Shown here one piece after another: positions 36,560 through 59,686 of a stretch of DNA of 64,000 nt (its first letter is position 1; each line of letters opens with the position of its first letter). A program made the position numbers and the translations under genes. The notes under the pieces were generated by a model. The model was not told where the DNA came from, searched no databases, and saw only the letters and a list, made by a program, of their open reading frames with translations. Origin of the DNA: Clostridia bacterium (GTDB taxonomy: Bacteria; Bacillota; Clostridia; UMGS1883); NCBI GenBank assembly GCA_051866635.1, contig JBJDXJ010000038.1:146372-210371 (forward strand), read 5' to 3'.

Positions 36560-36692
36560 TATTACTCCAAGGACTCCGTTGCGGACTGTAAGCGTCAGCT
36601 TACATCCCGGTTTTGGTATTGTGAAAATCCGTTTAAATCAGTATGAATAAAAAAGTAAAACGCAGACCGACAAAAACGGTCTGCGTTTAAGT

Positions 36693-36765
36693 TTAGCGGA
36701 AGTTCATTCCATTAATTTTGGTGGGCTTGCCTTGGTAGGTGACACGGCGTAAGGCTTCACCGATA
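36693..36765 (-). repeat. cotJC 3'-end copy A with diverged core
   Basis: Translates IGEALRRVTYQGKPTKINGMNFR*; hairpin at 36659-36688; arm ttactc follows on + strand. Confidence 0.85.
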
Positions 36766-36975
36766 TTACTCTTTAAAACTAATTGAATTTTGGTCGGTAA
36801 TTAAGGTGTAAAATGGAATTTGTGAGTTTTGTAATAGGGGAAACTGCGTTTAATATATAGTTATTTTAGCATGTAGAAAAGGGGTCGTTGTTTTGATAAA
36901 ACACCTCTGCATAAAAACTATTGAATAATTAATAAAATACAGGTATAATCAAAACAAGAGATTTATCGTAAAAAG

Positions 36976-37581
36976 GTGATGGGAATGGCTGAAGTTTATA
37001 AATTTAAAGTAAAATTAAGAGAGCCGGAAGATAAAATCTGGCGTGATATTGAGCTTACCTCCACATCAAGTGTGGCGAAATTAGGGTATGCCATTCTTGC
37101 CTCTTTCGAGGCAGAGGGAATTCATTTGTTTTGCATAAAATTCAAAGGAGACAGATATGAAATCGTTAACGATGATTTTTATGATAAATTGGGAATAAAA
37201 ACGATGGATCCGATTTTTATAAAGTTATCCTCTTTAAAAATGGAAATTGGCGATACAATGGAACTGGAATATGATTACGGTGTAGGCTGGTTTTTTGATA
37301 TTGAGCTTATTTGTGTAAAACCGATGGCAAAAGGAACGGGAAATTACTATCCTTACGTTACAGATGGTGCGGGTTTGGGAATTATAGAAGGTCTTTATGC
37401 CGATGAATGGGCAGAGTACATAAAAACGGTTGATGAAACGGGCGTGCCTCCGATTTACTATGATGTGTTCGATAAAGAAGTTACTTGGGACTATCGGAAA
37501 TTTGATATAGATATAACCAATGCTTTGTTGAAAGGGACTGTTAAGCGAATGAAAAGAATCTACGAGGACCTTTTTGAGTAA
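36976..37581 (+). CDS. pRiA4b ORF3 / IS1096 TnpR-like protein
   Basis: YKFKVKL..IWRDI, HLF, LEYDYG..W.FDI, YP.VTDGAG.GIIE. Confidence 0.8.
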   Translation: MMGMAEVYKFKVKLREPEDKIWRDIELTSTSSVAKLGYAILASFEAEGIHLFCIKFKGDRYEIVNDDFYDKLGIKTMDPIFIKLSSLKMEIGDTMELEYDYGVGWFFDIELICVKPMAKGTGNYYPYVTDGAGLGIIEGLYADEWAEYIKTVDETGVPPIYYDVFDKEVTWDYRKFDIDITNALLKGTVKRMKRIYEDLFE

Positions 37582-37611
37582 TAACTGAAATAGTAGAGGA
37601 GAGATGGAAAA

Positions 37612-37668
37612 ATGGCAACAGAATTAGAAATGTTAGAGCGAGCAAAGATATATATGGAAAAGCTGGCA
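37612..37668 (+). pseudogene. 5' stub of the 39518-40084 gene
   Basis: MATELEMLERAKIYMEKLA then jumps to terminator. Confidence 0.8.
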
Positions 37669-37709
37669 TACAAAAAGACAACGAGACCGAATTTTGGTCT
37701 CGTTTAAGT

Positions 37710-37782
37710 TTAGCGGAAGTTCATTCCGTTGATTTTTACAGGTTTTCCCAGGTCAGTGATGCGGCGGAGCGCTTCACCGAAA
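37710..37782 (-). repeat. cotJC 3'-end copy B with 17-bp core
   Basis: FGEALRRITDLGKPVKINGMNFR*; core ggagcgcttcaccgaaa 37766-37782; hairpin 37680-37704. Confidence 0.9.
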
Positions 37783-37969
37783 TTACTCTTTTAAAAAAAT
37801 CTCTGAAAGCATTGGGGAGACTGGATTTGAGGCGTGTTAACAGTTTTGGGATTTTGGAAAGGTTTGAAATTTTATAATAAAAGCCTTGATATTCTTGTAT
37901 TATTTGATTATAATAATAATTATTATTAGAGAGTTATTAGATAATTATTAGAAAGATGAGGGATAACAC

Positions 37970-39277
37970 ATGCTTGCAGAAGGTAAGGGTATTGAACTAA
38001 AAAGAGAATATGTAGATGATATTAAAAAGACGGTTATAGCTTTTGCTAATTGTGATGGAGGAAATATTTATATTGGAGTTAATAATGACGGAACTGTATG
38101 TGGAATAGAAGATACTGATGAAATTATGTTAAAGGTTACTAATGCAATTCGTGATGCTATTCGGCCTGATGTTACGATGTTTGTGGACTGCAGGGCAGAA
38201 CAGTTAGACGAGAAGGCTGTTTTGTGCATTTCAGTTCAGCGAGGTACTGCGAGACCCTACTATCTTCAAGGAAAAGGGATAAGACCCGAAGGTGTGTTTG
38301 TAAGACAGGGAGCATCTACAGTTCCGGCAACAGAATCTGCAATTTTAAATATGATAAAAGATACCAGTGGCGACAGCTATGAAAAAGCAAGAAGCATTAA
38401 CCAGGAATTGACTTTTGAAAAAACCACGGATTTCTTTAAAAAGAGAAACATAGAATTTGGCAATGCACAAATGAGAACATTGCATTTTATTGGAGAAGAT
38501 GGTATGTACACAAATCTTGCATTTCTTCTTTCTGATCAGTGTTCACATAATGTCAAGCTGGCGGTATTTGAAGGTAGTGTAAAAACCGTGTTCAAGGACA
38601 GAAAAGAGTTGTCGGGATCACTTCTTTCACAATTAGAAGAAGCGTATGAATATATTGAGCGTTACAATCGCACGAGGGCGGAATTTTCCGGACTTGATAG
38701 GATAGATAGCAGAGATTATCCTACGGAAGCTGTCAGAGAAGCCCTTCTTAATGCAATTGTGCATAGAGATTATGCATTCAGCGGACCTACATTGATAAGT
38801 ATTTTTGACGACAGAATTGAGTTTGTGACAATTGGCGGCTTAGTAAAAGGGATAAGTCTTGATGATGTTTTTCTGGGAGTATCTGTTTTGAGAAATCAAA
38901 ATCTTGCCAATGTTTTTTATAGGCTGAACTTAATTGAAGCATATGGTACAGGTGTTTTAAAAATTAACGGCAGTTATGCTGACTGCAATATGAAACCGGT
39001 GATAGAAGCAACAGATAATGCATTTAAAATAACTCTCCCGAACTTAAACTATAATACCGATTTAAAGCCAAGAAAAACAAAGGCTACAAATAAAAGAGAA
39101 ACTATTATATTGGAATACTGCAAAGAAAATAACGGAATAACCCGTCATGAGATTCAGGAACTTTTAGATGTATCACAGGCAACGGCTATCCTTATCATTA
39201 AGGAAATGATAAAAAACAAGATGCTTATTAAGGTCGGTCAGGGTAGAAATGTGAGCTATATTACTAATGAAAGATAG
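37970..39277 (+). CDS. AlbA_2/Schlafen DNA-binding + RecG-C-like ATPase + wHTH protein
   Basis: IELKRE..IAFANCDGGNIYIGV; REALLNAIVHRDY; IEAYGTG. Confidence 0.85.
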   Translation: MLAEGKGIELKREYVDDIKKTVIAFANCDGGNIYIGVNNDGTVCGIEDTDEIMLKVTNAIRDAIRPDVTMFVDCRAEQLDEKAVLCISVQRGTARPYYLQGKGIRPEGVFVRQGASTVPATESAILNMIKDTSGDSYEKARSINQELTFEKTTDFFKKRNIEFGNAQMRTLHFIGEDGMYTNLAFLLSDQCSHNVKLAVFEGSVKTVFKDRKELSGSLLSQLEEAYEYIERYNRTRAEFSGLDRIDSRDYPTEAVREALLNAIVHRDYAFSGPTLISIFDDRIEFVTIGGLVKGISLDDVFLGVSVLRNQNLANVFYRLNLIEAYGTGVLKINGSYADCNMKPVIEATDNAFKITLPNLNYNTDLKPRKTKATNKRETIILEYCKENNGITRHEIQELLDVSQATAILIIKEMIKNKMLIKVGQGRNVSYITNER

Positions 39278-39517
39278 GTGATAAAATAAGCTCTATTTCA
39301 TTGGTAAGCGGACAATCAGCAAAGTTAAAGGCTGTGGCAGCAATTATGACGTTTGTATAGATTTTACACTCTTCCCTGACGAAGCAGAAGAATATATATG
39401 AGAAGTAGAAAAAAGCGAAGAAGGAAGATAATTTGTGTCAATTAATTAATTCTCGTCCTGAGTGTATGAAAAATATATTATTGAGAAAATAATCTATACT
39501 GAAAGAAGTGAAGATAC

Positions 39518-40084
39518 GTGGCAACAGAATTAGAAATGTTAGAGCGAGCAAAGATGTATATGGAAAAGCTGGCAAACGGAATTAATCCCATTGATGATAC
39601 GGAAGTTAAAGATGATGACTGTATTAACAATGTGAGGCTGTCCAGGTGCTTTTTCTATGTGGCAGATGTGCTTGGAAAGATTATAGCAAACGGAGGAACA
39701 GTGCCGGTTAGGAAGAAAGCCGGTACTATGCCTTTTTCGATAACAGATGAACAACTTAAAAATTATGAGTTTTCAGATAATCCTATTGTACTTAGTGAAA
39801 TTGCAAAAAGATTAAATGCATTGAAAACTGACACAAATATGAAAAATATTACATATAACCATCTGGCGGATTGGCTTATGAGCGTTAATATGTTAGAGTA
39901 TGCAACAAAAAGTAACGGCACTACTACCAAATATCCAACCGAGGCGGGGAAGCGTATGGGAATGACAGTTGAGAAAAGGCAAAGTGTGCGAGGGGAATAT
40001 TTGGTTGTGGTATATAATAAACAGGCACAGCAGTTTATTATTGATAATATGGATGCTGTTTTGGACAGCATAAGTAAGAAATAA
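39518..40084 (+). CDS. Conserved hypothetical protein
   Basis: 188-aa ORF with RBS; paralogues at 37612 and 52660. Confidence 0.8.
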   Translation: MATELEMLERAKMYMEKLANGINPIDDTEVKDDDCINNVRLSRCFFYVADVLGKIIANGGTVPVRKKAGTMPFSITDEQLKNYEFSDNPIVLSEIAKRLNALKTDTNMKNITYNHLADWLMSVNMLEYATKSNGTTTKYPTEAGKRMGMTVEKRQSVRGEYLVVVYNKQAQQFIIDNMDAVLDSISKK

Positions 40085-40117
40085 GACAACGAGACCGAAT
40101 TTCGGTCTCGTTTAAGT

Positions 40118-40190
40118 TTATCGGAAGTTCATTCCGTTTGTCTTGACGGGTTTGCCTAAATCGGTTACACGACGGAGCGCTTCACCGAAA
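40118..40190 (-). repeat. cotJC 3'-end copy C with 17-bp core
   Basis: FGEALRRVTDLGKPVKTNGMNFR*; core 40174-40190; hairpin 40088-40112. Confidence 0.9.
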
Positions 40191-40523
40191 TTACTCTTTT
40201 AAAAAAATTTCTGAAACGCCCGGATAGACTTGGGCTCATCGAGGTTTTATTTTTTTTGTAAAAATTGGAATAAAAGTGGAGAAATCGGATGATGTGCAGA
40301 TAACTTTCCTCACATCCGGCTTACGTACAGGAAACTGTATGTGAGTCTTTTTATATATAATCGGAGTATATTTATTCTTTAATAAAAACCTTCAAAATAT
40401 TAGAAATTAAAGATTTCGTATGTTTATATGGTCATTCGTCCTGAATTATTGATTTAAATAAAGGCACATGCTATAATAGCTTTGATGGTATAATATACCA
40501 TATTAAAGGGAAGTGATCTAAAG

Positions 40524-41333
40524 ATGAGAAATCAGGAAGCGGAGTTCATTCGCTTAACACAGCAATGCTGGCAGCATTACTGGCAGCTTGATATGGATTT
40601 TATGCTTAGCTATTGCGATGAAAAGGTTACATGGATAGGTGCCGAACAAAATGAATTTATAAGAGGCATAGAAAATGTGAAACAAAATTTTTCCGAGCTT
40701 CTTCTTCATCTTCGCACCTGCCATCTGCTTAATCAGGAATTCTACGCACAGCAATGCGTAAAAAATACCTGCACCGTTATAGGGCGGTATTTGGTTGCGA
40801 CTGACGAAACAAACGATTACTTCTTGCAGGCACAGCAAAGATGCACATTCGTATGGGAAGTTAAAAACAAAGAATATAAAATAATTCATATTCATGTGTC
40901 AAACCCCATGGGGGAGTTAAAGGTTGCAAAGGGGGAACGCTTTGTAAATACCGTAGGATATATGGCAAACAAATATCTTGAAGAGAACTTCAAGAAAAGA
41001 TTTCTTGGAAAACGAATCACTACAACGGACGTAAACGGTGCGGTTCGGTTTATACATTTATCTGAAATAATGTATGTAATAGCACACCGCAACGATTTGG
41101 TTATTGTAACTATCGGCGGAAACATAGAGGTAAAAATGAACATTTCTGAATTTATGGAGCTGGCGGACAGCAAATTTCTGAAGGTTCACCGTAGCTACGC
41201 AATAAATATAGACTTTATGGTGAAGCTGGAAAGGTACGCAGTTACAATGAAAAACGGCGAGCAAATACCCATTCCCGTAAAAAAATATAACGGCTTGCGT
41301 GACGAGATAATTAAAATGAATAACTGCAAATAA
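40524..41333 (+). CDS. SnoaL/NTF2-like sensor + LytTR DNA-binding regulator
   Basis: WIG..E, RCTFVW..HIHVSNP; FLKVHRSYAIN. Confidence 0.85.
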   Translation: MRNQEAEFIRLTQQCWQHYWQLDMDFMLSYCDEKVTWIGAEQNEFIRGIENVKQNFSELLLHLRTCHLLNQEFYAQQCVKNTCTVIGRYLVATDETNDYFLQAQQRCTFVWEVKNKEYKIIHIHVSNPMGELKVAKGERFVNTVGYMANKYLEENFKKRFLGKRITTTDVNGAVRFIHLSEIMYVIAHRNDLVIVTIGGNIEVKMNISEFMELADSKFLKVHRSYAINIDFMVKLERYAVTMKNGEQIPIPVKKYNGLRDEIIKMNNCK

Positions 41334-41351
41334 AAGAAAGGAAAGATAACA

Positions 41352-43712
41352 TTGAAAACAAAAAAAATAATTGCACTGCTTATTGCCGCAATGACTGCAA
41401 TATCGGCATCATATACTGCGGCCGCCACCGGCGGAGATTACGTCACGCGTGGCGAGGCAGCCGAGATGCTTCAAATTGCCGCGGATGATTATAATCCGCA
41501 GATTAAAAAATCCGACATCATTAAAGGTTACGAAGACGGAGAACTCCACGAGGATGAAACCGTCACCCGTGCTCAGGCACTGGTAATGTTAAAGCGTGCC
41601 TTCGGCGATTTGCCCGAGCTTAAAGGCAACAATCTAAGGATTGCCATACCGAAGGAGAGCTTTTCCGATATTCCCGAATGGGCGGAAACGGAGCTTACGC
41701 CCATATTTGACGCCGGCATTGCCGCAGGGACGGGAGATGGAAAATTTTCACCGGATGACCCTGTTACGACAGAACAGATGAAAACTTTTATAAACCGCGT
41801 TTATACTCTGTACGGTTCAAACCTTAAGGACAGCTTTTATGCGACTGTAAACAAAACCGATCTCGAAAATCTCGAAATACCTGCCGGCAACAGTATTGCC
41901 GGAACCATTTACAGTATTAGAGACCAAAGCAACATTCAGGTTTCGGAGCTTATCAAAGAAATCTCCGTTTCTAATCCCAAATCGGGCTCAGCACAGGAGA
42001 AAATTAAAATTCTCTACGACTGCTTTATGGATGTCAAGGCACGCAACGAAGCAGGATATACACCGATTGCAGAGGATTTAAAGACGATTGAAAAAATCCA
42101 AAGCGTGTCGGAATTAAGTGAAATTCTGATAATGGATGGCAGTGCCTCCGCACTGTCGATAATGACCGAATTTACCTTGGGAATTGACAATTTTGACAGC
42201 GGAAAATACATAACTATCCTTTCTCCTGCATCCGCAGATCAGACAAAGCAGGTATACGAGGGAAAAGCGGAAACCCAAAAAAATGCGTATCTTAAATATC
42301 TGGCAGCACTGCTTACTCTGTGCGGCGAGGACGAAAAAAGTGCAGAAAAGGACGCTAAGGCGTTTTTTGAGTTTGAAAAACAGCTCTCGGACGCTTCGCT
42401 TACAATTGCGGAGCAGTACGATTTGGAAAAAACCTACAACATTTACACCCTTGACGAATTAAAAGACATCTTTTCCACTGTGGATTTGGAGACGGAATTT
42501 TTGCGGACCGGTCTTAAGGACAGCGGACGGGTTCTCGTATCCGATAAGGGAAAAATGACTCAGCTTGCTAAAATGCTGACGGACGAAAATATCGATGAAA
42601 TCAAAAATTATCTGAAAATGAAACTGATTATAACATGCTCGAAATATTTCGGCGAGGATTTCAGAAATGTCCGTATTACCTACTATAAGGAAGCCTACGG
42701 CATAGTCGGAGAAAAAACCATGGAGGAGGATGCCGCCGGAATAATTGCAGAAATTCTGCCGGATTATGTAGGGCAGGCTTACGCCGAAAAATATTGCACC
42801 GAAGAGATAATTTACGATGTTAGAAAAATGGTTAACGACATCATAGAGGTGTATCGCAAAAGAATTTCCGCACTGGATTGGATGAGCGAAAAAACTAAAA
42901 GCAAGGCTATTTTAAAGCTCGATTCCATGCGTATTCACATAGGCGCTCCCGATTACGGCAAGATTGCCTCACCGCTGGATACCGCCGTATTTAAAAGCAG
43001 TGAGGACGGCGGCAGCTATTTTTACAACGCAATGGAGATTAAAAAGGCAATCCAAAGGAACGACGCCCGCCTTTCGGGAGAGAGTGTGGATAAGGATCAG
43101 TGGATTACCACGCCGCAGACCGTAAACGCCTTCTATTTTCCAAGTTTTAATTCGATTACCTTCCCGATGGCATTTTTACAGTATCCGGTTTACGATAAAA
43201 ACGCCTCCTATGAAGAAAATCTCGGTGCCTTGGGTTCTGTAATCAGTCATGAAATTACACACGCGTTTGATTCCGAAGGCTCGCAGTACGATGAAAACGG
43301 AAACGCCGTAAATTGGTGGAGCGAGGAGGATAAAATAGCTTTCGCGAAGCTGTGCGAGAATGTGGTATCTTTCTTTGACGGTCAGGAATCCGCACCGGGC
43401 ATCGCCATTGACGGGACGCTGACACTCACCGAAAACATCGCCGATTTGGGCGCGCTCTCCTGCATTACGGAAATCGGCAGTCAGACGGAAAATTTCGATT
43501 TTAAGAAAATGTACGCTTCGTACGCAAGGCTTTGGCTTTCGACCGCCTCGAGAGAATATCTGCAAAGTATGGCGTATGAAGATGTGCACAGCTCCAACAA
43601 GGTACGCACCGACAGAGTGCTGCAAAGTTTGGATAAATTTTATGAGGTATACGAAATCGGTGAAAACGACGGAATGTACGTTCCGCCGGAGGAGAGAGTT
43701 AGGATTTGGTAA
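41352..43712 (+). CDS. SLH-anchored M13 (neprilysin-like) metallopeptidase
   Basis: Signal peptide, SLH repeats (TRAQ), VNAFY, HEITH, ENIAD. Confidence 0.92.
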   Translation: MKTKKIIALLIAAMTAISASYTAAATGGDYVTRGEAAEMLQIAADDYNPQIKKSDIIKGYEDGELHEDETVTRAQALVMLKRAFGDLPELKGNNLRIAIPKESFSDIPEWAETELTPIFDAGIAAGTGDGKFSPDDPVTTEQMKTFINRVYTLYGSNLKDSFYATVNKTDLENLEIPAGNSIAGTIYSIRDQSNIQVSELIKEISVSNPKSGSAQEKIKILYDCFMDVKARNEAGYTPIAEDLKTIEKIQSVSELSEILIMDGSASALSIMTEFTLGIDNFDSGKYITILSPASADQTKQVYEGKAETQKNAYLKYLAALLTLCGEDEKSAEKDAKAFFEFEKQLSDASLTIAEQYDLEKTYNIYTLDELKDIFSTVDLETEFLRTGLKDSGRVLVSDKGKMTQLAKMLTDENIDEIKNYLKMKLIITCSKYFGEDFRNVRITYYKEAYGIVGEKTMEEDAAGIIAEILPDYVGQAYAEKYCTEEIIYDVRKMVNDIIEVYRKRISALDWMSEKTKSKAILKLDSMRIHIGAPDYGKIASPLDTAVFKSSEDGGSYFYNAMEIKKAIQRNDARLSGESVDKDQWITTPQTVNAFYFPSFNSITFPMAFLQYPVYDKNASYEENLGALGSVISHEITHAFDSEGSQYDENGNAVNWWSEEDKIAFAKLCENVVSFFDGQESAPGIAIDGTLTLTENIADLGALSCITEIGSQTENFDFKKMYASYARLWLSTASREYLQSMAYEDVHSSNKVRTDRVLQSLDKFYEVYEIGENDGMYVPPEERVRIW

Positions 43713-43752
43713 GGTCTAAACAGAGTAATACTAACATATAGGGGGAAATCAG

Positions 43753-46700
43753 ATGAAACTTAAGTTGACAGCATTTCTGCTGGCTTTTATCATGGCTTTG
43801 CAGGTGTCGGGTCTGTCTGCTTTTGCACAGCAGACAGGGGAGAATTTACAGGAATCTGCCGTGAATGGAGAAAATTCCGCAGAAAAGACTGACGGAAACA
43901 CCTCGCCGACAGAGGAAGAGACTGTCGGAGAAGATGAAACTGTCGGAGAAAACGAGACTTCCGAAGTGGAGACGCCCGAAGAAGATGAGCCTTCCGAAGG
44001 GGAAGAGCCTACCGAAGGGGAAGAGTATGCCGAAGGCAGTGTGTTCAACTTTTCAGCAGCTAAATACGTGATGACTGAAACGGACGGGAACTGTGAGATT
44101 TTTGTGGAGCGACAGGGCAGTGCGGACGCTGAGGCGGATGTGGTGTTTAAGCTTGTTGACATTCTCGCAGTTTACGATAGAGATTATACGGTTTTGGACG
44201 AAAGCGGCAATATACTTCAAAAGGCGGACGGAACGGTGCTTGCACCTGAGGAAATGCAAAGGTTTTTGGCGCAACAGGACAAGCCAAAATCTCAGGAGAC
44301 ATCTGCGGATAGCGGACGCGACGATATTTTTGAGGTGCGTAACACCATGCTTGGAATCGACTCGGACAACGGGGAAGAACAGGCAATCAAAAACGAAATC
44401 CAAACCGCTGTGGAAACGGTAAACACGGAATTGTTCAATGCAGAGGGCATTTCCGGCGTCCTGCATTTTGCAAGCGGAGAAACCCGCAAGAGCTTTACCG
44501 TTGTTCCGGTGGATAACGATACGGGTGAATCGGACAAAACAGTGCTCCTTGCTCTCATAGGTGCCTCGGAGGGCAGCATTGCACCCAATGCGACGGCGAG
44601 TCTTGTCATTATGGACGACGAACCCTATGAGCCGCCCATCTTTGAGATGACGGAAAGAGATGTTACTCTGGAAGCTTCCGAGCCGCAGGCGGAGCTGACC
44701 GTACGACGCATCACAGGTGAGAGGTATTACAGCACCGTGTTAGTATCCACCTATTCAATGACGGCGCAGAGCAGTGTGGATTTTGTGCCTCTTAACAATC
44801 ATCAGATAGTGTTTGCACCGGGCGAAACGGAGCATACTGTGACGGTGGAGGCACTGAACTTTGACTATTGCGGTAGCTTTGGAGTGCGTATTGTCGGTGA
44901 CGGCAGCTGCCAAATCGGTGAAAATGACCGCACGATTGTACATATTTCCGGTGAAAAATCCGAACCGGAAGAAACAGAGCCTGAAGAGACCGTTCCCACG
45001 GCAACACTGTTTGAGACACAGGCAAATACGGTTTCGCTTGATTCCGCAGAAGATGAAGCATGGGACGGTGTGTTGGGGTCCAAGTTTTACCGTGTGAAGG
45101 ATTTGAATATGTGGCGGAGCAAGATGGATTATGATTGGACAATTCTCTTAAGTACGGGAGTCCGCAAGACTACGGAAGTCCGCAAGACGATAAAGCTCGG
45201 CGAGGAGGTTATCGTAGATAGCGGCGGCTCAGTATGTCTCAAAATCGACCTCGATTTAGGCGCGATCAACGCCAATGTTGAAAATATTTCTCTTGATATA
45301 AAAACAAAAGAGGTGTACAGTTATGACCTAACCTACGCGGACAGAAGTATGAAGGGAGGCTGGGAAAAGTCGAATGGATACAATATAGATGCCCCCGTTT
45401 CGCAGAATTGGGAAAGCAGAACCTTTAACATTGGTAAATTTCCGACCTCCTCAAGCTCCACCAACAGATATAACTATGTAATAGAACCGGCAGACTATTT
45501 TCCCGGAGATTTGGATGTCGTTGTTGAAGGGTGCACATATGAGTTTAAAGAAAAGTACGCCGTAAAAACGATGGAGGCGGAAGAAGTAAAAACGGTGCCG
45601 TATTTCAACTTAAATACGACGGAAAGTGCTGAATACTTGGTAAATTATAAGCCACCGAGTATTAAACTGCAAACCGACGACGGCAAGAACATAGACGCAT
45701 TTTATCCCACAGATGAAATGATAAATATTGTCTGCGACAATAACGATGCGATTTTGCACGGCATGAATCTAAACGGAGTCGTTGTTTCAAACCACGTATT
45801 GAGCGACAGCGAGCTTCGCAGATTAAAAAACAGCTGCAATTGTTCTTATGCCGCATATTTAACGCAGGACGAGTTTAAAATAAGTGGCATGGACCTTACT
45901 AAAAAGATAACAGAAAGCACGGAAACCTATTACTTTTATCCGGACTTCCGCACGGTATATACGAAAGTATGGCTTGAATCCGCAGACGACGGAGAAACGA
46001 CAATTCACTCGCAGCAAGGAGATTGTTTTTACACCAAAACCGGTTCGGTAATAGAGGGAAAGGGCTTTGCCGGTGCCAACAGGGTGATTACGGGTTATGC
46101 TGTTTACGGCCTCAACCTGCTTCTCGGCATGGCATCGCCTCGGACTCTTATCAGCGTGTACCGTCACCCGGAGGATTCGTCCTTGCTGGGCGGCGAAGGC
46201 AGTCTGTTTTTTGTGCCCTTTGTACCGCCTGAGTTTACATATGTGTACATTGTTCCGCTGACGGAATTTCAGGATCTGACCATCAAGCCGCATCCCAGTA
46301 CCAAAAACGAAACCATATATGAGACGGTGACCGACCCGGAAACGGGAGAGGCTGTAGAACGCGAGGTCACCTATGGAGGACGCATTTTCTTAAACCGTGT
46401 TTTCGGCGAGGGAGAGGACGGTGCCGGGCAAGTTGCGGCGGATGAAGACGGACAGATTTATTTTGATTCCGTTAACAGTAACGCTGTTTTTACGCTGAAT
46501 TCGCTTACTCCGAACGGTTACATCACCGAATGGGTGAACGGCACCATGGACTTTGACGAGGACGGCATTGTTGACGGCGAGCAGGCAGGCGGAATGAGTC
46601 AGTCAAAGGTAGACAGTTTGTATATCCCTGTTTACGGCAACCAGTTTGTCTATCAGGTGAATCAGGTTAATCCGAAATACTATTATCGGTTTACAAAATT

Positions 46701-51957: not shown

Positions 51958-52247
51958 ACTTGAGCCAAGCGGAAACGCATGGCACTAAAGTGGTTGTAAA
52001 AAACAACTGAAAAAAAGGGCGTGTCTCAACAAGTGAATTTTCACCAAATTGAGGCAACGCCCTCTTTTTCTGCCACTTTTATCTCATGCAAAAAATTGCC
52101 CTTGACGGTTGGATATCGTCTTATTGTGCAATTTTTGAATATTGTATGCTATGGTTTTAATTGATACTAACTTTTTGTCAAAAACTGTTGAATGTTATAG
52201 AAAATCCATATATAATCATAGTGTGATATTGTGTCTTGAAAAGAGCA

Positions 52248-52628
52248 ATGGAAATGGCTGAAGTTGATAAATTTAAAGTAAAATTAAGAGATTTGGAAGA
52301 TAAATTTGGCACGATATTGAGATAACCTCAACATCAAATGTGGCGAAATTAGGCTATAGCGTTCTCGCGGCTTTCAAAGAAGAGGGAAGTCATTTGTTTT
52401 GTATAAAATTCAAAGGGTGCAGATATGAAATCGATTGCGATGATTTTTATGATAAATTAGGGATAAAAACAATAAATCCCATTGCTAAAAAGTTATCCTC
52501 TCTATTATGATGTATTTGATAAAGAAGTTACTTGGGACGATAAGAGGTTTGATATTGAGACAACCAATGCTTTGTTGAAAGGGACTGTTCAACGAATGAA
52601 GGAAAATTACGAGGAATATTTTGAGTAA
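52248..52628 (+). pseudogene. Degraded copy of pRiA4b ORF3-like gene
   Basis: Aligns to 36979-37581 with frameshifts and an internal deletion. Confidence 0.85.
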
Positions 52629-52659
52629 TAACTGAAATATTGAACAAGGAGATGGAAAA

Positions 52660-53163
52660 ATGGCAACAGAATGAGAAATGTTAGAGCGAGCGAAGGTGTA
52701 TATGGAAAAGCTTGCAAACGGAATTAATCCCATTGATGATACGGAAGTTAAGGAAGATGACTGTATTAATAATGTACGGCTGTCCAGGTGCTTTTTCTAT
52801 GTGGCGGATGTGCTCGGTAAGGTCATAGCAAACGGAGGAACAGTGCCTGTAAGAAAGAAAGCCGGTACTATACCTTTTGCAGTAACAGATGAACAACTTA
52901 AAAATTACGAGTTTTCGGACAATCCGATTGCATTGAGCGAAATTGCAAAAAGGATAAATGCATTGAAAACTGACCCAAATATGAAAAATATTACATATAA
53001 TCATCTGGCGGATTGGCTCATGAGCGTTAATATGTTAGAGTATGCAACAAAAAATGACGGCAGTACAACAAAGCGTCCTACGGAAGCAGGAAAGAGCAGG
53101 GGGATAACTGTTGAAAAGAGACAGGGTAGTGTTATATGGATGGATTACGAAAGAAAAAGGTGA
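52660..53163 (+). pseudogene. Damaged paralogue of 39518-40084
   Basis: TTA to TGA at codon 5, in-frame ATG 52678, divergent truncated C-terminus. Confidence 0.75.
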
Positions 53164-53168
53164 AAAAT

Positions 53169-53621
53169 ATGAGCTTAATATCTTTAGCAAGCGGTAAATC
53201 CTTGTGGCGAGGCTATGAATACTACAAAGGAAACCATGTTTATTACAAATCAAACAAGAGTGCAACTGAAATCGAGGGAAAAGTTACCGGTAGTGGACAA
53301 ACTTATACTGTTAATATAGACATTGAGCATCCACGTAAATCAAAGTGTAATTGTCCACATGCTGATGGAAAGCGGATTATTTGTAAACATATGGTTGCAC
53401 TATATTTTGCATCATTTCCCAAAGAAGCAGAAGAATATTACAATGAAGTTATTGCTTATGAGAAAGAACAAGAGCAGATGGAAGAAGAACTTGATTATAA
53501 AATTACTGCATACATAAATAAACTGTCTAAAGGACAATTACAAGACTTGGTATATGACCTTTTATATAATGGTCCTGACTGGCAGTTTGACAATTTTGTT
53601 AATGAAAATATTGAGTGGTGA
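53169..53621 (+). CDS. SWIM zinc-finger protein
   Basis: RGYEYY..CNCPHADGKRIICKH. Confidence 0.85.
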   Translation: MSLISLASGKSLWRGYEYYKGNHVYYKSNKSATEIEGKVTGSGQTYTVNIDIEHPRKSKCNCPHADGKRIICKHMVALYFASFPKEAEEYYNEVIAYEKEQEQMEEELDYKITAYINKLSKGQLQDLVYDLLYNGPDWQFDNFVNENIEW

Positions 53622-53625
53622 AATT

Positions 53626-53940
53626 ATGGAAGTATCAAAACAAGACTGGAAATTGTTTCAGGAGAAGATTGGCGACTGGCAAGAATCTTATATAGAAAGA
53701 CTTAATAATGAGTATATAAAACTTCTTGAAGGCACGGGAAAGCCATCAGAAAAGTTCTGGCAATTGGAAAAACGCATCAAAAAGGATAAAACACATTGTG
53801 GAGTATTAATTGAAATGAGAAAACAAAATATTCCATTTGATTTAGTTTCTTTAATAAGAGACGGTGCAATTGGGTTTGAAGATATAAAATGTTTCAGCGA
53901 TGACTTACAGGAAGTTGTTAGATTTTTAATGGAAAGATAA
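53626..53940 (+). CDS. Conserved hypothetical protein
   Basis: MEVSKQDWKLF..WQE.Y..SEKFW; start after preceding stop. Confidence 0.7.
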   Translation: MEVSKQDWKLFQEKIGDWQESYIERLNNEYIKLLEGTGKPSEKFWQLEKRIKKDKTHCGVLIEMRKQNIPFDLVSLIRDGAIGFEDIKCFSDDLQEVVRFLMER

Positions 53941-54077
53941 ATTCCACTCCACAAAGAGAAAACTGTAAAAAGGTGCAAAAATATCTTTTAGAATATTGAC
54001 TTATTTACATATTTGTGGTAATACTAATATATAAAACTGTAAAAAGGTGCAGAAATCTCTTTGGAGTGGTGATAGAT

Positions 54078-55373
54078 ATGGAAATTAAGCGAGATTTATA
54101 TTTGAATAAGCTGATTAGCTTGAAGCATAACGGATTAATCAAAGTTATAACCGGTATCAGAAGATGCGGAAAGTCTTACCTTTTGAACGAAATATTTTAT
54201 AATCATCTTTTAGAAAGCGGTGTAGATGAAAAGCATATCATCCGTTTTGCATTTGATTCCGGTGATGATTTGAATCTGATTGGTGAAAGCATAATTGAAA
54301 TAGAAAAACAAAAAAGAAAAGTTGATCCCGAAAAGTTTATGGCGTATATCCGAAATCAAATGAAAGATAACGAAATGTACTATATTCTTTTAGATGAGGT
54401 ACAGATGCTCGATTGCTTTGAAACTGTTTTAAACGGTTATCTTCGCAAGAAAAATATGGATGTTTATGTTACCGGAAGTAATGCGAAATTTCTCTCAAAA
54501 GATATTATCACTGAGTTTGCAGGTCGTGGTGACGAAATTCACATGTATCCGTTAAGCTTCTCTGAGTTTATGACGGCTTACAAGGGTGATAAGTACGAGG
54601 GACTTTCCGAATATATGATCTATGGAGGTATCCCACTGGTGGTTCTCAGGGATGGCCAGGAGAATAAGGCGTCTGCCCTTGAAAATCTTTTCAGTGAGAT
54701 TTATGTAAGAGATATTCAAAAAAGAAACAAGGTCAGAAACATCGGCGAGCTTGAAGATTTGCTTAACATAGTCTCTTCTGCCATCGGTTCTTTAACCAAT
54801 CCAGAAAAACTAAAAAACACCTTTAAATCTATCAAGAATTCAAAAATAACTTCCACAACAATCAAAAAATATCTTGATTTTCTTGAGGATTCATTCTTGA
54901 TTGAATCAGCACAAAGATACGACATAAAGGGAAGGACATATATTGAAACCCCTAAAAAATATTATTTTTCCGATATGGGGCTTCGTAATGCTCGTATAAA
55001 TTTCAGGCAGTTCGAGCAGACTCATGCAATGGAAAATGTAATCTATAATGAACTTAGAATGCGTGGATACAGAGTTGATGTCGGTGTTGTTCCGATTACA
55101 GAAAAGAACGAGAACGGTCAAACTGTCAGAAAACAGCTGGAGGTTGACTTTATATGTAACCTCGGTTCAATGAGATGCTATATACAGTCAGCTTTTTCAA
55201 TTCCTGATGAAGAAAAGAGAGTGCAGGAAATAAGACCGTTTAAGAAAATTGACGATTCGTTCAAGAAAATCGTTATTACAAAGGACATAGTTGCGCCTTA
55301 TTATGATGAAAACGGCATTCTCACTATGAATATTTACGATTTCCTTATGGATGAAAAGAGTCTTGAAAAATAG
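54078..55373 (+). CDS. AAA_14 ATPase with DUF4143 domain
   Basis: GIRRCGKS, LLDEVQ, VTGSN, KKYYFSDMG, EVDF; start MEIKR. Confidence 0.9.
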   Translation: MEIKRDLYLNKLISLKHNGLIKVITGIRRCGKSYLLNEIFYNHLLESGVDEKHIIRFAFDSGDDLNLIGESIIEIEKQKRKVDPEKFMAYIRNQMKDNEMYYILLDEVQMLDCFETVLNGYLRKKNMDVYVTGSNAKFLSKDIITEFAGRGDEIHMYPLSFSEFMTAYKGDKYEGLSEYMIYGGIPLVVLRDGQENKASALENLFSEIYVRDIQKRNKVRNIGELEDLLNIVSSAIGSLTNPEKLKNTFKSIKNSKITSTTIKKYLDFLEDSFLIESAQRYDIKGRTYIETPKKYYFSDMGLRNARINFRQFEQTHAMENVIYNELRMRGYRVDVGVVPITEKNENGQTVRKQLEVDFICNLGSMRCYIQSAFSIPDEEKRVQEIRPFKKIDDSFKKIVITKDIVAPYYDENGILTMNIYDFLMDEKSLEK

Positions 55374-55431
55374 AAGGTGCTTTTATTGTGAAAGACAAAG
55401 GCTTTGTTTTGATTGGATTTAAAGAAAGTGA

Positions 55432-56007
55432 ATGGAGGGAAAAATGATGAGAAAGAATTTTGATGCGAAAGCGATTTTATATCCGATGCCGGTACTGATT
55501 ATCGGTACATATGACGAGAGCGGAAAGCCTAATGCAATGAATGCTGCATGGGGTGGCATTAGCGAGGAAAACGAGATTTCTATTTGCGTGGATGATGGAC
55601 ACAAGACTGCAAAGAATGTTGTTAAGACGGGTGCATTTACCGTAAGCGTTGCAGATGCAGAAAATGTTGTAGCTTGTGATTATGTTGGTATCGTATCAGG
55701 CAATAAAGAGACTGATAAAATTAAAAAGACAGGTTGGCACATTACAAAGAGTGAGTTTGTAAATGCTCCGCTTTTTGACGAATTACCTATGGCACTTGAA
55801 TGTAAGCGCATCAGTTATGATGAAGAATCTTGCAGACTTGTTGGTGAAATCGTAAATGTCTGTGCAGACGAAAGAATACTTGACGAAAACGGAGAAATTG
55901 ATTTGAATAAATTCAGTCCTATTACATATGATCCGGTGCATCATACTTATCATAAGCTTGGTGAAGCGGTTGGCAAGGCGTTTCGTGATGGGTTGAAATT
56001 GAAATAG
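55432..56007 (+). CDS. Flavin reductase-like (flavoredoxin) protein
   Basis: YPMPVLIIGT..NAMNAAWGG, DYVGIVSG, LECK. Confidence 0.88.
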   Translation: MEGKMMRKNFDAKAILYPMPVLIIGTYDESGKPNAMNAAWGGISEENEISICVDDGHKTAKNVVKTGAFTVSVADAENVVACDYVGIVSGNKETDKIKKTGWHITKSEFVNAPLFDELPMALECKRISYDEESCRLVGEIVNVCADERILDENGEIDLNKFSPITYDPVHHTYHKLGEAVGKAFRDGLKLK

Positions 56008-56060
56008 AATACCGGGACAAAAAAACACGGAGTTACCAATTAGGTAAGCTCCGTATTTTG

Positions 56061-56261
56061 CTATTTGCGGGCAGGTTTTACGTTTACGGCAGGGTTTATG
56101 TTTCCATCGATTGTGCCGTGTTCTTCCTCAAATTTTTTTATGTTTTCGCGGATAAGGACAAGGACATGGCTGTTTACGCTGCGACCTTCATAGTCGGCCA
56201 CATAGCCAAGCTTTTCTAACATTTCTTCTTCGATACGGATTGATACACTCTTAATAGCCAT
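56061..56261 (-). CDS. Arc/ribbon-helix-helix DNA-binding protein
   Basis: SVSIRI..L.YVADYEGRSVN; RBS gaggtg; palindrome tagatatacagtatatcta upstream. Confidence 0.8.
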   Translation of the reverse strand: MAIKSVSIRIEEEMLEKLGYVADYEGRSVNSHVLVLIRENIKKFEEEHGTIDGNINPAVNVKPARK

Positions 56262-56362
56262 ACAAACACCTCTGAATAGATATATTATATGTTTATTTTA
56301 GAATGATTATGTGGTAAAATGTTTTAAATAGATATACAGTATATCTATAATATTTTCAAAGG

Positions 56363-56827
56363 GTGTTCAGAGTGAGTGTAAAGAGATGTTGTTTTGCAGG
56401 GCATAACGAAACATACGGTGATGAAGTTAAAGAGAAGATAAAAGGTATTGCTATCCGTTTGATTGAGGAAAAGGGCGTGGTTGAATTTTGGGTGGGGAAT
56501 TACGGCGGTTTTGACAGGTGTGCGGCATCGGCAATTGGTGAGGTGAAGAAAATATATCCGCACATTAAGCTTGTGCTTATACTGCCTTACCTGACAAAAG
56601 CGGTGAGCGACTGCAAAGAAGAGTATTACAAAAAGTATGATGAAATCGTTATAGCGTATATGCCGGAGAAAACACCTGCGAGGCTGAGGATAATAAAAGC
56701 GAATGAGTATATGGTGGATAATTGCGACTTTCTTGTTTGCAATGTGGAACACTCCTGGGGCGGTGCAGCAAAGACGGTGGAGTATGCCAAACGGGAAGGG
56801 AGGGAGATTTGGAATTTGGTGGTATAA
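56363..56827 (+). CDS. SLOG/YspA (DUF1273)-like protein
   Basis: CCFAGH, GGFD, NEYMVD, GGAAKTVEYA. Confidence 0.8.
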   Translation: MFRVSVKRCCFAGHNETYGDEVKEKIKGIAIRLIEEKGVVEFWVGNYGGFDRCAASAIGEVKKIYPHIKLVLILPYLTKAVSDCKEEYYKKYDEIVIAYMPEKTPARLRIIKANEYMVDNCDFLVCNVEHSWGGAAKTVEYAKREGREIWNLVV

Positions 56828-56973
56828 TTAGTGGATTTTGTTGAAAAGAGAGAAAAAGTATGATATGATAGCACAAAGTTGCAAATGTAATATAAAACAA
56901 TGTGTTACCACTTCATACTACTGAAATTAAACTGAAAATCTGATACTGTAATCTCAAAAAAGGAGGTTGCGGA

Positions 56974-57630
56974 TTGAAAGATTTTAAAATTTATGATGTA
57001 TTCAAATCGTTTTTAGTTGAAGATGCGGAGTATGACGGATATATTGAACTACCAAAGATTAAGACGAGTGATTTAATCCCCGATAAGGTTGTGACTTTTT
57101 CGAAAGCAATGGAGAAATCATTTAAAGACTTTGGCTGCCATGTTATGTTCTATGAACACGATGCGAAATTTGAAAGATTATGGAATAATCCAATTCAATA
57201 TCTTCCCAAACTAAAAAAGTTCAAAGGAGTTATATCGCCTGATTTTAGCCTTTACAGAAATATGCCCCTTTGTATGCAAATGTGGAATGCATACAGAGGG
57301 CGTGCACTTGCATATTGGATGCAGAAAAACGGGATTGAGATTATTCCCAATATAAGATTCAACGATGCGAGAACATACAGCTTTTGTTTTGATGGGATTG
57401 AACCATTTAAGACTGTAGCGGTGGGAACGCACGGTTGTATAAAGAAAAAAGAAGATAAGAAAATTTTTAAGCAAGGCTTAAAAGAGCTTGTAAGGGTATT
57501 ACAACCTAAAACAATTATTATATATGGTGCGGTTCCTGATGAAATCTTTGGAGGATATCGCAAAAAAGGCATAAATATTATCGCCTTTGAAAGTGAGTAT
57601 TCAAAATCCCGAAGGCAGGTGAATGCCTGA
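56974..57630 (+). CDS. DUF4417-family protein
   Basis: MFYEHD.KFERLWNNP, ISPDFSLY..MP...Q.WN.YR, IIPNIR. Confidence 0.85.
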   Translation: MKDFKIYDVFKSFLVEDAEYDGYIELPKIKTSDLIPDKVVTFSKAMEKSFKDFGCHVMFYEHDAKFERLWNNPIQYLPKLKKFKGVISPDFSLYRNMPLCMQMWNAYRGRALAYWMQKNGIEIIPNIRFNDARTYSFCFDGIEPFKTVAVGTHGCIKKKEDKKIFKQGLKELVRVLQPKTIIIYGAVPDEIFGGYRKKGINIIAFESEYSKSRRQVNA

Positions 57631-57965
57631 TGGGTGCAAGCACAGCTGGAAATTTCGGGTACACAAAGGGTAGTGGCAAGCGTATTTCTAATCCGATTGT
57701 TCGAGGCAAAAGAGTAGGGTCAACGGCAAAAAATAGAACAGATGGACAACATAAATTTAGCGATATTGTTGATAATTATGCAAGTGGTGCAAAAACTTTT
57801 AAAATAAAAGGCGGAGATGGTAAAACCAGAGTTCTTTACCAAATCAAAGGGAGTTTGAATGGTAAACAAGGAATATTTGAATGGATATTAGAAAGTGGCA
57901 GTAGAGTTACACATCGAAGATTCATTCCAAATGGCAAAATAACAGGAAGACCTAATGGACGTTGA
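57630..57965 (+). CDS. Small basic putative toxin with Gly-rich N-terminus
   Basis: H.F.DIVDNYA..LYQI.GSLNG..GIFEWI..VTHRRF resembles polymorphic toxin C-termini; very basic. Confidence 0.55.
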   Translation: MGASTAGNFGYTKGSGKRISNPIVRGKRVGSTAKNRTDGQHKFSDIVDNYASGAKTFKIKGGDGKTRVLYQIKGSLNGKQGIFEWILESGSRVTHRRFIPNGKITGRPNGR

Positions 57966-57977
57966 GAGGTGTATTAA

Positions 57978-58475
57978 ATGTACGAAATAGATAACAAAAG
58001 CATTTTAATGTTAGATTGGGACAGCATTTGTTTGGGAATTGAGGAGAATTTAATTTATCCTAAGGTAGCAATAGAATATGCGGAGTGTGTGATGTTACAA
58101 AATCAAGAGGAAAGCAATAGCGACATTGTTGAATTGCTTATATTAGATGAATTAGAAAAAAACTGTGTGTTGGCGTTGGTAAGAAAACTGGCAAAGAAAA
58201 AGAACAAAAAAACAAAGCGTGTTTTGAGATGCGCCATCTTAAGCAGTATAGCTAATCAAAAGCTTGGAGATGGCGAGTCATTGGACAGAATAATAGATGT
58301 TTACGAGGATTTTGATTGTCCTGAGGACATGGAAGAATTTATTGCATACCTTCCAACCAAAGATGCCGATGATTACAACCCGGAAGAACATTCCATTAAG
58401 GAAAACCAAAGAAGAATGGTAAAGAAGTTTGAAAACTTTTTGAAAGAAGAAATTGAGTGGGTAAATATGCGTTAA
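57978..58475 (+). CDS. DUF2247-like acidic putative immunity protein
   Basis: YEDFDCPEDMEEFI.YLP..YNP..HS..EN..R; acidic; follows basic ORF. Confidence 0.65.
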   Translation: MYEIDNKSILMLDWDSICLGIEENLIYPKVAIEYAECVMLQNQEESNSDIVELLILDELEKNCVLALVRKLAKKKNKKTKRVLRCAILSSIANQKLGDGESLDRIIDVYEDFDCPEDMEEFIAYLPTKDADDYNPEEHSIKENQRRMVKKFENFLKEEIEWVNMR

Positions 58476-58482
58476 TATAGAA

Positions 58483-59100
58483 TTATAAAAACCCCCAACG
58501 ACAAAAAGCATCTGTAAGAGCGTACTTACAGATGCTTTCGTGCTCTTTGAATCCGTTTAAATGAGTATGGAGCGCTTCACCGAAACGTTGGAAGTGTACA
58601 ATTTCGCGTTCTCGTAAAAAGCGTATAGGGTCAATAACGTCCGGGTCATCGGCAAGTGCTAAAATATTGTCGTAGGTTGAGCGTGCTTTTTGTTCTGCTG
58701 CCAAATCTTCTGTAAGGTCGGTTATTGCATCACCCTTTGACTGAAGATATGCCGCAGTGAAAGGTACGCCTGATGCTGACGCCGGGTAAATTGCAGTTGA
58801 ATGGTCAACAAAGTATGGGGCAAAGCCTCCATCTATAATTTCCTGTTCGGTAAGGTTACGGGTGAGCTGGTAAACAATCGCACCAATCATCTCCAAATGC
58901 CCAAGTTCTTCCGTACCTATATCATTTAAAACACCTTTTGTGATTGTGTCGGGCATTGTAAAACGTTGGCTTAAATAGCGTAGTGACGCTCCAAGTTCAC
59001 CGTCGGGGCCACCATATTGAGTTAAGATTACCTGAGCCATTCTGGGATCAGGTTTTTTTATATTTACGGGATACTGTAGTTTCTTTTCATAAACCCACAT
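58483..59100 (-). CDS. cotJC: Spore coat manganese-catalase-family protein, interrupted after RFGEAL
   Basis: MWVYEKKLQYPV, QYGGPDGE, DIGTEELGHLE, REIVHFQRFGEAL; tail after 58569 is element-derived. Confidence 0.92.
   Translation of the reverse strand: MWVYEKKLQYPVNIKKPDPRMAQVILTQYGGPDGELGASLRYLSQRFTMPDTITKGVLNDIGTEELGHLEMIGAIVYQLTRNLTEQEIIDGGFAPYFVDHSTAIYPASASGVPFTAAYLQSKGDAITDLTEDLAAEQKARSTYDNILALADDPDVIDPIRFLREREIVHFQRFGEALHTHLNGFKEHESICKYALTDAFCRWGFL
58503..58538. terminator. Bidirectional terminator at element end
   Basis: aaagcatctgtaag-agcgta-cttacagatgcttt perfect 14-bp stem. Confidence 0.8.
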
Positions 59101-59354
59101 TATAAATTGCTCCTTTCCCAAACCCATGGATTTTCTATCCACTGCCAAGGCGTCCGTTCATTTGATGCACCTGCAGTCAAAGGTCCGTATTTTGATTCAT
59201 ATTCATTACGAAGCTCTTTTGCTTCACGATGTTTTTCGTGATAGAGGGTTAAAGCACTCTGACAACAGGGGTGAGTGTCTAAATAAAGCATAAGGTCATG
59301 GGCTGCAAAGTCTGCCGCCTGTACTTTATACAAAAGCTCTTTTCTGCTATCCAT
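59100..59354 (-). CDS. cotJB: Spore coat protein CotJB
   Basis: LYLDTHP, YGPLT, WQWIENPWVWE. Confidence 0.92.
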   Translation of the reverse strand: MDSRKELLYKVQAADFAAHDLMLYLDTHPCCQSALTLYHEKHREAKELRNEYESKYGPLTAGASNERTPWQWIENPWVWERSNL

Positions 59355-59556: not shown

Positions 59557-59686
59557 AAATTTTTCATCCTTTCAGAGCGAAATGTTCGCTCAATACATAT
59601 TATGACAAAATTCTCTGTGTGTGAAATATATAGTTGAAAAAAATGGATAACGGTGCTACAATTTGAATTATAAGGGCGGTGGTATA

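Follow-up and report, generated by a model that had tools for sequence, protein, structure and literature searches.

Displaced copies of the cotJC 3' end and their cargo cassettes in a Clostridia genome

Why should a spore-coat gene that is interrupted near its 3' end be followed by three further copies of the piece that it is missing? This question is raised by a 64,000-nucleotide stretch of DNA (hereafter the window) from a Clostridia bacterium of the GTDB lineage UMGS1883 (assembly GCA_051866635.1, contig JBJDXJ010000038.1), in which the minus strand carries cotJA, cotJB, and cotJC at 59556-58483 (Pfam CotJA, CotJB, Mn_catalase). In Bacillus subtilis, cotJC is expressed in the mother cell. 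The answer favored here, which is considered probable rather than assured, is that non-autonomous integrative cassettes have accreted in tandem at the 3' end of cotJC by site-specific recombination, with the recombinase encoded elsewhere. The repeat anatomy, four combinations of sites, the coding conservation of the displaced gene ends, the variability of the cassettes, the occurrence of one cassette at two loci, and arrays that hold no recombinase genes are all observed.

The genomes compared are labeled in the manner of G000 to G009, ten of them belonging to the genus of the cotJC host; contigs are labeled C and database proteins P. G000 is the genome of the window, a 2.33-Mb assembly in 63 contigs, and the window is G000:C38:146372-210371, within a 220-kb contig. 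A search for CotJC in 41 related genomes gave a match in 40.

The interrupted gene and its spare ends

The cotJC frame is native as far as ...VHFQRFGEAL and is then continued by 28 foreign codons (HTHLNGFKEHES...), with the stop at 58483. Thus, the reading frame of a sporulation gene is interrupted at 58569, a trait of elements of the skin, SPbeta, and gin type. A 17-nt core, GGAGCGCTTCACCGAAA, lies at this junction and is found exactly at 37766, 40174, and 58569 (0.12 matches are expected by chance, and three were reached in none of 100 shuffles), with a diverged copy at 36749-36765. These positions, noted earlier when the sequence was read without database searches, have been confirmed. On the minus strand, each of the three outer cores opens a tail, which comprises the last 22 codons of CotJC and a stop, and a minus-strand terminator follows. 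Together the outer cores are part of a 137-nt direct repeat family with spacings of 1017 and 2408 nt and identities of 64/100/87%. The opposite side of each outer core carries an arm, Y, that starts with TTACTC, whereas the core at cotJC has a different arm, X, instead. The X and Y starts form a 12-nt inverted repeat (TTTAAATGAGTA / TACTCTTTTAAA) that is complementary at 11 of 12 positions around a 19-nt spacer. The parts of the locus are as follows.

58586-59100, minus strand: cotJC body, with its start codon at 59100; native to ...RF; Pfam Mn_catalase at 2.2e-54; 87-91% identical to same-genus CotJC
58569-58585, no strand: core at the junction of cotJC and the element, attL-like (body, core, X); an exact repeat
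58483-58568, minus strand: foreign 28-codon end of cotJC, read from the X arm and its hairpin, with the stop past the hairpin
58497-58568, no strand: X arm, right end of the 18.4-kb unit, with a hairpin at 58505-58538 (14 pairs) and ...AATCCGTTTAAATGAGTATGG; 92-93% identity in G001 and G002
40191-58568, plus strand: innermost unit, 18378 nt between cores, of mosaic GC content (0.34-0.49); genes by Pfam
40191-40290, no strand: Y arm of type a, innermost unit; promoter-like site at 40449-40477
40118-40190, minus strand: tail 1, with the core at 40174-40190, the cotJC end FGEALRRVTDLGKPVKTNGMNFR, and a stop; terminator at 40112-40088
37783-40190, plus strand: 2408-nt unit, with a type-b Y arm, a promoter at 37886-37914, a Schlafen/AlbA_2-HATPase_c_4 gene, a 188-aa gene B, a terminator, and tail 1
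37710-37782, minus strand: tail 2, with the core at 37766-37782, FGEALRRITDLGKPVKINGMNFR, and a stop; terminator at 37704-37680
36766-37782, plus strand: 1017-nt unit, with a type-c Y arm, a promoter at 36921-36949, the PRiA4_ORF3 gene A (36976-37581), gene B cut to about 20 codons, a terminator, and tail 2
36693-36765, minus strand: tail 3, with the diverged core at 36749-36765, IGEALRRVTYQGKPTKINGMNFR, and a stop; terminator at 36688-36658
36627-36646, no strand: another copy of the X arm, coreless, immediately after the terminator of tail 3

The three in-frame tails translate as the sequence-only reading had given them, each with its terminator and TTACTC. The same reading had calculated that joining the core at 58569 to an outer core would remove 18395, 20803, or 21820 bp and would restore a CotJC of 195 amino acids (aa). 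These figures follow from the coordinates: the rejoined frame has 173 + 22 = 195 codons, and intact CotJC from the same genus is also 195 aa long (G004, P0004, P0005). The tails are genuine cotJC 3' ends, as can be seen from relatives in which the gene is uninterrupted. The cotJC of G004 (195 aa) ends in ...RFGEALRRVTDLGKPVKTSGVTFR followed by a stop, and the uninterrupted 3' end in G006 is ...RRVTDLQKPVKQSGVTFR followed by a stop; CotJC C-termini of other genera end quite differently. A further suggestion, that the cell makes a functional choice among C-termini, finds no support in these sequences, in which the three tails differ by only 2-6 nonsynonymous changes.

The foreign end of CotJC, with a C-terminal ...HTHLNGF where native ends have ...NGMNFR, is not peculiar to the window. 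In both G001 and G002, cotJC is broken by the X arm at the identical base as in G000, and the same X-derived CotJC end is present in these genomes and in the database proteins P0002 and P0003. Two CotJC homologs from other sources, P0009 (83% identity) and P0021 (73%), also quit the consensus right after RFGE(A), and one of them continues ...PNHTNL..., recalling the reading of the X arm. Other genera may thus have related insertions at this position.

Arrays and cargo across the genus

Units like the 137-nt repeat (tail, core, and Y arm) are present in 7 of the 10 genus genomes, and the earlier proposal of an accretion site with variable cassettes in relatives has been borne out. In G004, where cotJC is intact, three additional tails lie behind it at +1.1, +10.3, and +11.4 kb, and the 30 kb behind the cotJC 3' end of G006 contain another four or five. 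Two or three tails each are present on short contigs of G001, G003, and G008, and contig C43 of G000 carries a tail-core-Y unit plus a core-Y site. No such unit was found in the assemblies of G002 (96% complete), G005 (85%), and G009 (89%). The total is 22 tails in seven genomes, 14 of which stand behind a Y arm and 5 behind a conserved third arm, Z (about 110 nt); two are cotJC's own, and one (G001:C84, locus L047:6740) has a different upstream flank. In other genera, no tail duplicate was seen within about 1.5 kb downstream of cotJC, and among 22 loci only G004 showed one, which is a weak result given the short flanks.

Four combinations of sites are present in these genomes: cotJC body beside tail (G004, G006), body beside X (G000, G001, G002), Y beside tail (14 places), and X beside Y (G000:C19, G007:C85). 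These are the combinations expected from recombination between an attB and an attP, that is, between an empty site and a circular element. The last of them is the X-core-Y junction that had been predicted for an excised circle or a tandem arrangement, and it exists as genomic DNA at both places. The same junction point recurs in seven assemblies, and the junctions are exact to the base across different cargo contexts.

The tails carry a record of selection. Among the 22 tails, 21 are in frame, lack an internal stop, and have their stop exactly at codon 23, and one (in G006) has decayed. Over the 21 tails, the proportion of synonymous differences (pS) is 0.59 and that of nonsynonymous differences (pN) is 0.15, giving a pN/pS of 0.25; all 22 third codon positions vary, as opposed to 10 of 22 second positions. 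By this pattern, the tail is kept as protein and not as a DNA site, with only its first four codons (the core) kept as DNA. Between tails 1 and 2, differences affect 13 of 16.2 synonymous and 2 of 49.8 nonsynonymous sites, and the cotJC bodies of different species in the genus have a pS of 0.64-0.74 and a pN of 0.06-0.07. Because the synonymous divergence of tails 1 and 2 is on par with that of cotJC between species and the protein is conserved, the tails were selected as protein and come from lineages as diverged as species.

The arms are conserved as well. The X arm of G000 is 92-93% identical to that of G001 or G002 over 82-88 aligned nt, and 16 Y arms have in common a proximal block of about 33 nt and a tandem 8-mer located 75-90 nt from the core, with variable sequence between. 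At this divergence, both arms are evidently kept beyond the neutral expectation. The two separated conserved blocks of the Y arm are reminiscent of tyrosine integrases, with their core-type and arm-type sites.

No two of the species have identical cassette content, and the gene content beside the X arm differs in G000, G001, and G002. One cassette, encoding barnase and barstar and bearing a type-c Y arm, occurs both in the cotJC array of G004 and on G000:C19, with 88% identity over 1027 nt. On C19, it lies behind recN, between the recN terminator and an X-type element with a reverse transcriptase. The Schlafen cargo, which stands behind a type-b arm in the window, has a counterpart in G004:C64 (93% aa identity) behind an arm of type c. 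Similarly, a module of gene B stump, terminator, and tail is joined to Y arms of two types, type b in the window and type a on C43 (type a also follows tail 1). With the same modules and cargo beside different arm types, arms and cargo reassort. The C19 region itself (G000:C19:1-6900, locus L009) has, behind recN, a barnase-type toxin fragment with barstar and then the X-core-Y junction. The element past that junction encodes a 313-aa reverse transcriptase, a 362-aa protein without family, a YpsA-SLOG protein, and an HD protein, and is possibly a retron-like or defense reverse transcriptase system.

The innermost unit of the window carries genes for a LytTR regulator, an SLH-M13 peptidase, a 2734-aa SLH protein, a SWIM protein, an AAA_14/DUF4143 ATPase, a flavin reductase, and YpsA-SLOG, DUF4417, and DUF2247 proteins, in addition to a broken gene A (PRiA4_ORF3) and a copy of gene B. 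Genes A and B of the small units (36970-37671 and 39507-39818) have copies within this unit (52239-53163) that are 83-92% identical, the gene A copy being broken. Because of these internal copies, the 18.4-kb unit looks like a fusion of older cassettes in which an internal site was lost. Each unit has a promoter-like site behind its Y arm with 10-11 of 12 matches, and the cargo of the window reads opposite to cotJC; the promoterless cassettes and common promoter of integrons are not seen. In relatives, the units hold genes for barnase and barstar, AraC regulators with GH95, GH78, GH31, GH4, and fucosidase genes, rhamnogalacturonan lyase, GDSL lipase, Phd, DUF5131, and DUF3990 proteins, nucleotidyltransferase, WXG100 proteins, and PP2C with protein kinases. 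With a cargo of defense, toxin-antitoxin, and glycoside hydrolase genes, the site would be a route of accessory-gene flow in an uncultured gut clade.

Several features of the surroundings can be added. A FliB-like lysine-N-methylase homolog (59663-60571; NCBIfam 1.6e-60) diverges from cotJA and keeps this position in G001, G002, G004, and G006; it was the sole result of an NCBIfam search with 10 cargo and flank proteins. Behind an MmeI-type restriction-modification gene (61019-63778), three tandem copies with a period of 82-83 nt and a GC-rich hairpin occupy 63781-64000 and continue off the window. Rfam gave no family at gathering score for 28000-64000, and 40080-40300 had no match in phage and plasmid collections.

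The missing recombinase and the competing explanations

The sequence-only reading held that no unit contains a recombinase gene. This stands for the long open reading frames (ORFs): a Pfam scan of the 21 long ORFs of the three window units, with small ORFs outside the scan, found no Resolvase, Recombinase, or Phage_integrase domain within 36766-58568, and no recombinase domain was found in the array long ORFs scanned in G000, G004, and G006. The claim must be further qualified by a gene that lies beyond the array.

28464-29603, plus strand: tyrosine integrase gene (Pfam), 7 kb past the outermost tail, within a segment of low GC content that also has VWA and DUF6055 genes

As the enzyme of the array, this integrase was rejected as unsupported; a profile of the 16 Y arms found none nearby. 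A look-alike of the X inverted repeat lies at 28380, with 5 of 17 positions mismatched, and the window contains 14 such matches compared to 12.8 in shuffles. The nearest homolog of the integrase in the genus is 38% identical and is not on an array contig. The segment around it (28100-36650) has a GC content of 0.32-0.36 at the left, rising to 0.44, and encodes a 984-aa VWA protein and a 1108-aa DUF6055 protein besides the integrase. It ends in the X-arm copy behind the tail 3 terminator, and its left boundary was not found.

When all 10 genus genomes were searched for Resolvase and Phage_integrase domains, the contigs with tail or arm sites were without matches, the exceptions being G006:C6 and C43 of G000. 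The enzyme of G006:C6 is a large serine recombinase that belongs to a separate 38-kb element splitting cotJC at codons 62-69, and the junction of that element has no likeness to the tail core. On C43, a 543-aa serine recombinase is encoded at a distance of 14 kb from a Y arm, as part of an island that runs off the contig at its far end. This defense-type island (C43:1-20600; L010, L011) lies beside a tail-core-Y unit and includes type III restriction-like, SNF2 helicase, DUF4391, two HipA-like, and HTH genes; at C43:20475-20509, a further core-Y site is flanked on its other side by neither a tail nor X. Elsewhere in G000, Resolvase-domain ORFs occur at 5 places outside the arrays, three of them longer than 500 aa and none linked to the sites, and the genome encodes 9 tyrosine recombinases. 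The tandem pairs of serine recombinase genes in G002, G004, and G006 are likewise unlinked to arrays. A cognate autonomous element with the same site specificity was not found on any tail or arm contig of the 10 genomes. Neither IntI nor attI was found beside the array, where the cotJ neighbors are of other kinds (a FliB-like methylase, EamA, and the MmeI-type enzyme).

Some further candidates were tried and set aside. The large serine recombinases of G000 (C43, C15, and C34) and those of the elements that split cotJC in G006, G017, and G028 are mutually 21-30% identical, and nothing can be inferred from identities of this order. Scanning the contig ends of G000 for cut-off Y arms yielded none, and a match to the tandem 8-mer at C15:95 proved not to be a Y arm. 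The cotJC body is split by elements with a large serine recombinase at G006:C6:66249-104546 (codons 62-69, 38-kb insert); further splits lie at G017:C13:88682-94182 (about codon 60, 4.9-kb insert) and G028:C46:346-2495 (codon 138), and in several other genomes cotJC matches stop near residue 137 or 65.

If cassettes have indeed accreted at cotJC, the attachment site would be the last 18 codons of the gene, with crossover inside the 17-nt core, which specifies (R)FGEAL. Cassettes that are circular and non-autonomous would enter at the core by means of a recombinase encoded outside the array, service in trans being deduced from the absence of recombinase genes in the arrays. Most cassettes would bring a copy of the cotJC end and their own terminator beside the core. 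A tail-bearing cassette would thereby rebuild CotJC and an empty-looking site, so that the next cassette could enter at the same place and push older units outward, and the array would grow from the gene side. Core-to-core recombination would free a unit with the tail that lay behind it, which would explain why cassettes own tails. An X-type element would swap the last 18 codons of CotJC for 28 foreign ones, erase the appearance of an empty site, and cap the array. The window would show this capped state, with the 18.4-kb unit as the X-type element. We infer recombination itself, its direction, the order of events, and any present activity.

A number of observations weigh against this explanation. 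No recombinase has been identified, and site-specific recombination is deduced from anatomy alone. All of the genomes are draft assemblies resembling metagenome-assembled genomes (MAGs), in which arrays frequently stop at contig ends. G002, although 96% complete and carrying an X-interrupted cotJC, has no tail that could be found in its assembly. The barnase cassette of G000:C19 meets the recN terminator with no tail in between, and at 36627-36646 the X-arm copy lies against a terminator but has no core, for which the model gives no explanation. Furthermore, when the units of tail 1 and tail 2 are compared (40080-40216 and 37672-37808), 15 of 18 differences fall within the 56 nt of the tail outside the core, and the terminator, core, and Y start are nearly identical. 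By this comparison, either the flanks are constrained or the tails were swapped, and a simple accretion model predicts neither.

Also, no excised circle, same-species empty site, or rejoined cotJC was seen in the one public DNA run searched (word share 0.05), which is from a relative. Pieces of this run aligned to 39500-59400 are mostly 85-95% alike and come from relatives. One contig of 3421 nt covers 58491-59147, from the X hairpin through cotJC, and none links 40190 to 58569, although the uncovered parts are uninformative; the joints listed connect paralogous copies of genes A and B. A scan of metagenome contigs for the core+Y pattern gave two stretches, both unrelated on inspection, and a 21-mer of the X arm was found in only two records of genome contigs, those corresponding to G001 and G002.

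The most serious competitor, still judged unlikely, is that the locus is a static relic, in which the old integrases are lost, nothing moves, the foreign-end CotJC is a working protein, and the tails are fossils. Such a relic would account for arrays with no recombinase in or near them and for the lack of a tail in G002. An X-interrupted cotJC in three species and in database proteins is compatible with long vertical inheritance, and CotJC C-termini vary so widely across genera that the end may be dispensable. Fossils, however, should not have remained intact in 21 of 22 cases with a pN/pS of 0.25 and a single decayed copy, nor should the X arm and the Y blocks be far better kept than the synonymous sites of cotJC. 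Different cassettes in each species pair and one cassette at two loci are equally hard to reconcile with immobility, and the differing genes beside the X arm in G000, G001, and G002 argue against one inherited insertion. At the other extreme, the genus might possess an integron-like cassette platform in a sporulation gene, served by a recombinase from outside the array, in which repeated release and re-insertion re-attach tails and X caps reversibly switch two C-termini. Repeated re-attachment, either across the population or within sporulating mother cells, would explain the still coding-like state of 21 of the 22 tails (19 of them displaced), but this elaborate proposal is rated as quite improbable.

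More doubtful again is a developmental rearrangement like those of skin and SPbeta, by which the mother cell would join the core at 58569 to an outer core, remove 18.4-21.8 kb, and rebuild a 195-aa CotJC, with the insert retained in the germ line. The target is a sporulation gene, and its interrupted frame crosses a hairpin before the stop, so that the interrupted form may be poorly expressed. Tail 1, although displaced, is intact, correctly oriented, and equipped with its own terminator, and selection on displaced tails would be accounted for. Relatives have cotJC bodies split by elements with large serine recombinases (G006, G017, G028), and a passage of a preprint that cites Abe et al. 2013 names cotJC as an integration locus (10.1101/2021.11.22.469490). 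Against such a role, the element lacks its own recombinase or directionality factor, unlike each case described in the relevant passages of PMC5595907; G002 has no tail; and arrays also stand behind an intact cotJC in G004, where rearrangement is needless. If excision nonetheless turned out to be linked to sporulation, the cotJC element would become the first case of an intervening element that is served in trans. Finally, one can imagine no dedicated system at all, but only homologous recombination, duplication, transformation with DNA of relatives, or misassembly of strain variants. MAG-like drafts, the several paralogous copies of cargo genes A and B, and the single terminator module common to tails 1 and 2 and the C43 tail could all be cited in its favor. 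This is nevertheless very hard to credit, since repeat copies that differ by 13-36% within one 220-kb contig are not collapsed repeats, one junction point is found in seven assemblies and is base-exact whatever the cargo, and the arms are conserved together with their inverted repeat. Accretion of cassettes at cotJC thus remains the favored explanation, and the missing recombinase presents a clear, testable question.

Relation to known mobile systems

Apart from the naming of cotJC as an integration locus, a literature search found no description of a tail array at cotJC or of such accretion for gut Oscillospiraceae. By analogy, the arrays can be regarded as accretion of the staphylococcal cassette chromosome (SCC) type, or of the type seen with cis-mobilizable elements (CIMEs), in their working, but as members of neither family because the defining recombinase was not found. 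The skin (sigK), SPbeta (spsM), and gin (gerE) elements carry their own serine recombinase, as stated in passages of PMC5595907. Like them, the element at cotJC interrupts a sporulation gene and has direct repeats at its junctions that would permit precise rejoining. It differs in having no recombinase of its own, in displacing only the last 18 codons, and in the stacking of several spare ends.

ICEs (integrative and conjugative elements) and IMEs (integrative mobilizable elements) can accrete with CIMEs, for example those of the ICESt1/ICESt3 family; decayed elements without integration genes keep their att sites, and tandem copies give complex patterns of excision (review PMC5704250). The cotJC units likewise have att sites and, among their Pfam-scanned ORFs, no integration and transfer genes. 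In contrast to ICEs and CIMEs, no conjugation, relaxase, or integrase genes were seen in the units, no cognate autonomous element was found in the 10 genus genomes, and each cassette is of small size (1-18 kb) and has a promoter-like site of its own. Integrons offer another parallel in their recombinase-free cassettes, fixed site, proximal growth, and cassette-cassette junction equal to that of an excised circle. However, the cotJC array has no adjoining IntI, and its cassettes have their own promoter-like sites and terminators, possibly many genes, and an orientation that is mostly against cotJC; its sites do not appear attC-like. They also seem to lack any likeness to dif, the kind of 28-nt site at which elements exploiting Xer (IMEX) integrate.

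Tandem build-up at a gene end is known for SCCmec and for streptococcal ICE/CIME islands. Besides ICE/CIME accretion, the closest resemblance is to SCC and psiSCC composite islands. These occupy the 3' end of rlmH (orfX) as tandem units with direct and inverted repeats, many without ccr and one reduced to 2.6 kb (PMC9430635). Both systems integrate into the last codons of a conserved gene, and both include units free of a recombinase. At cotJC, direct repeats that include the target gene's 3' end enclose the units (36693, 37710, 40118, and the core at 58569), and the unit ends bear inverted repeats (the X and Y arm starts, 11 of 12). Ccr enzymes are able to act from another element. In distinction to SCC, no ccr-like recombinase was found in the arrays, and a second class of element, with the X arm, leaves the gene unrestored. 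The target here is a sporulation gene, and the restoring piece is 22 codons with its own terminator, compared to a few codons in SCC. A piece of this length is long enough to hold an evolutionary record, in which saturated synonymous divergence beside a conserved protein shows that cassettes were exchanged between lineages as distant as species and selected to keep CotJC whole.

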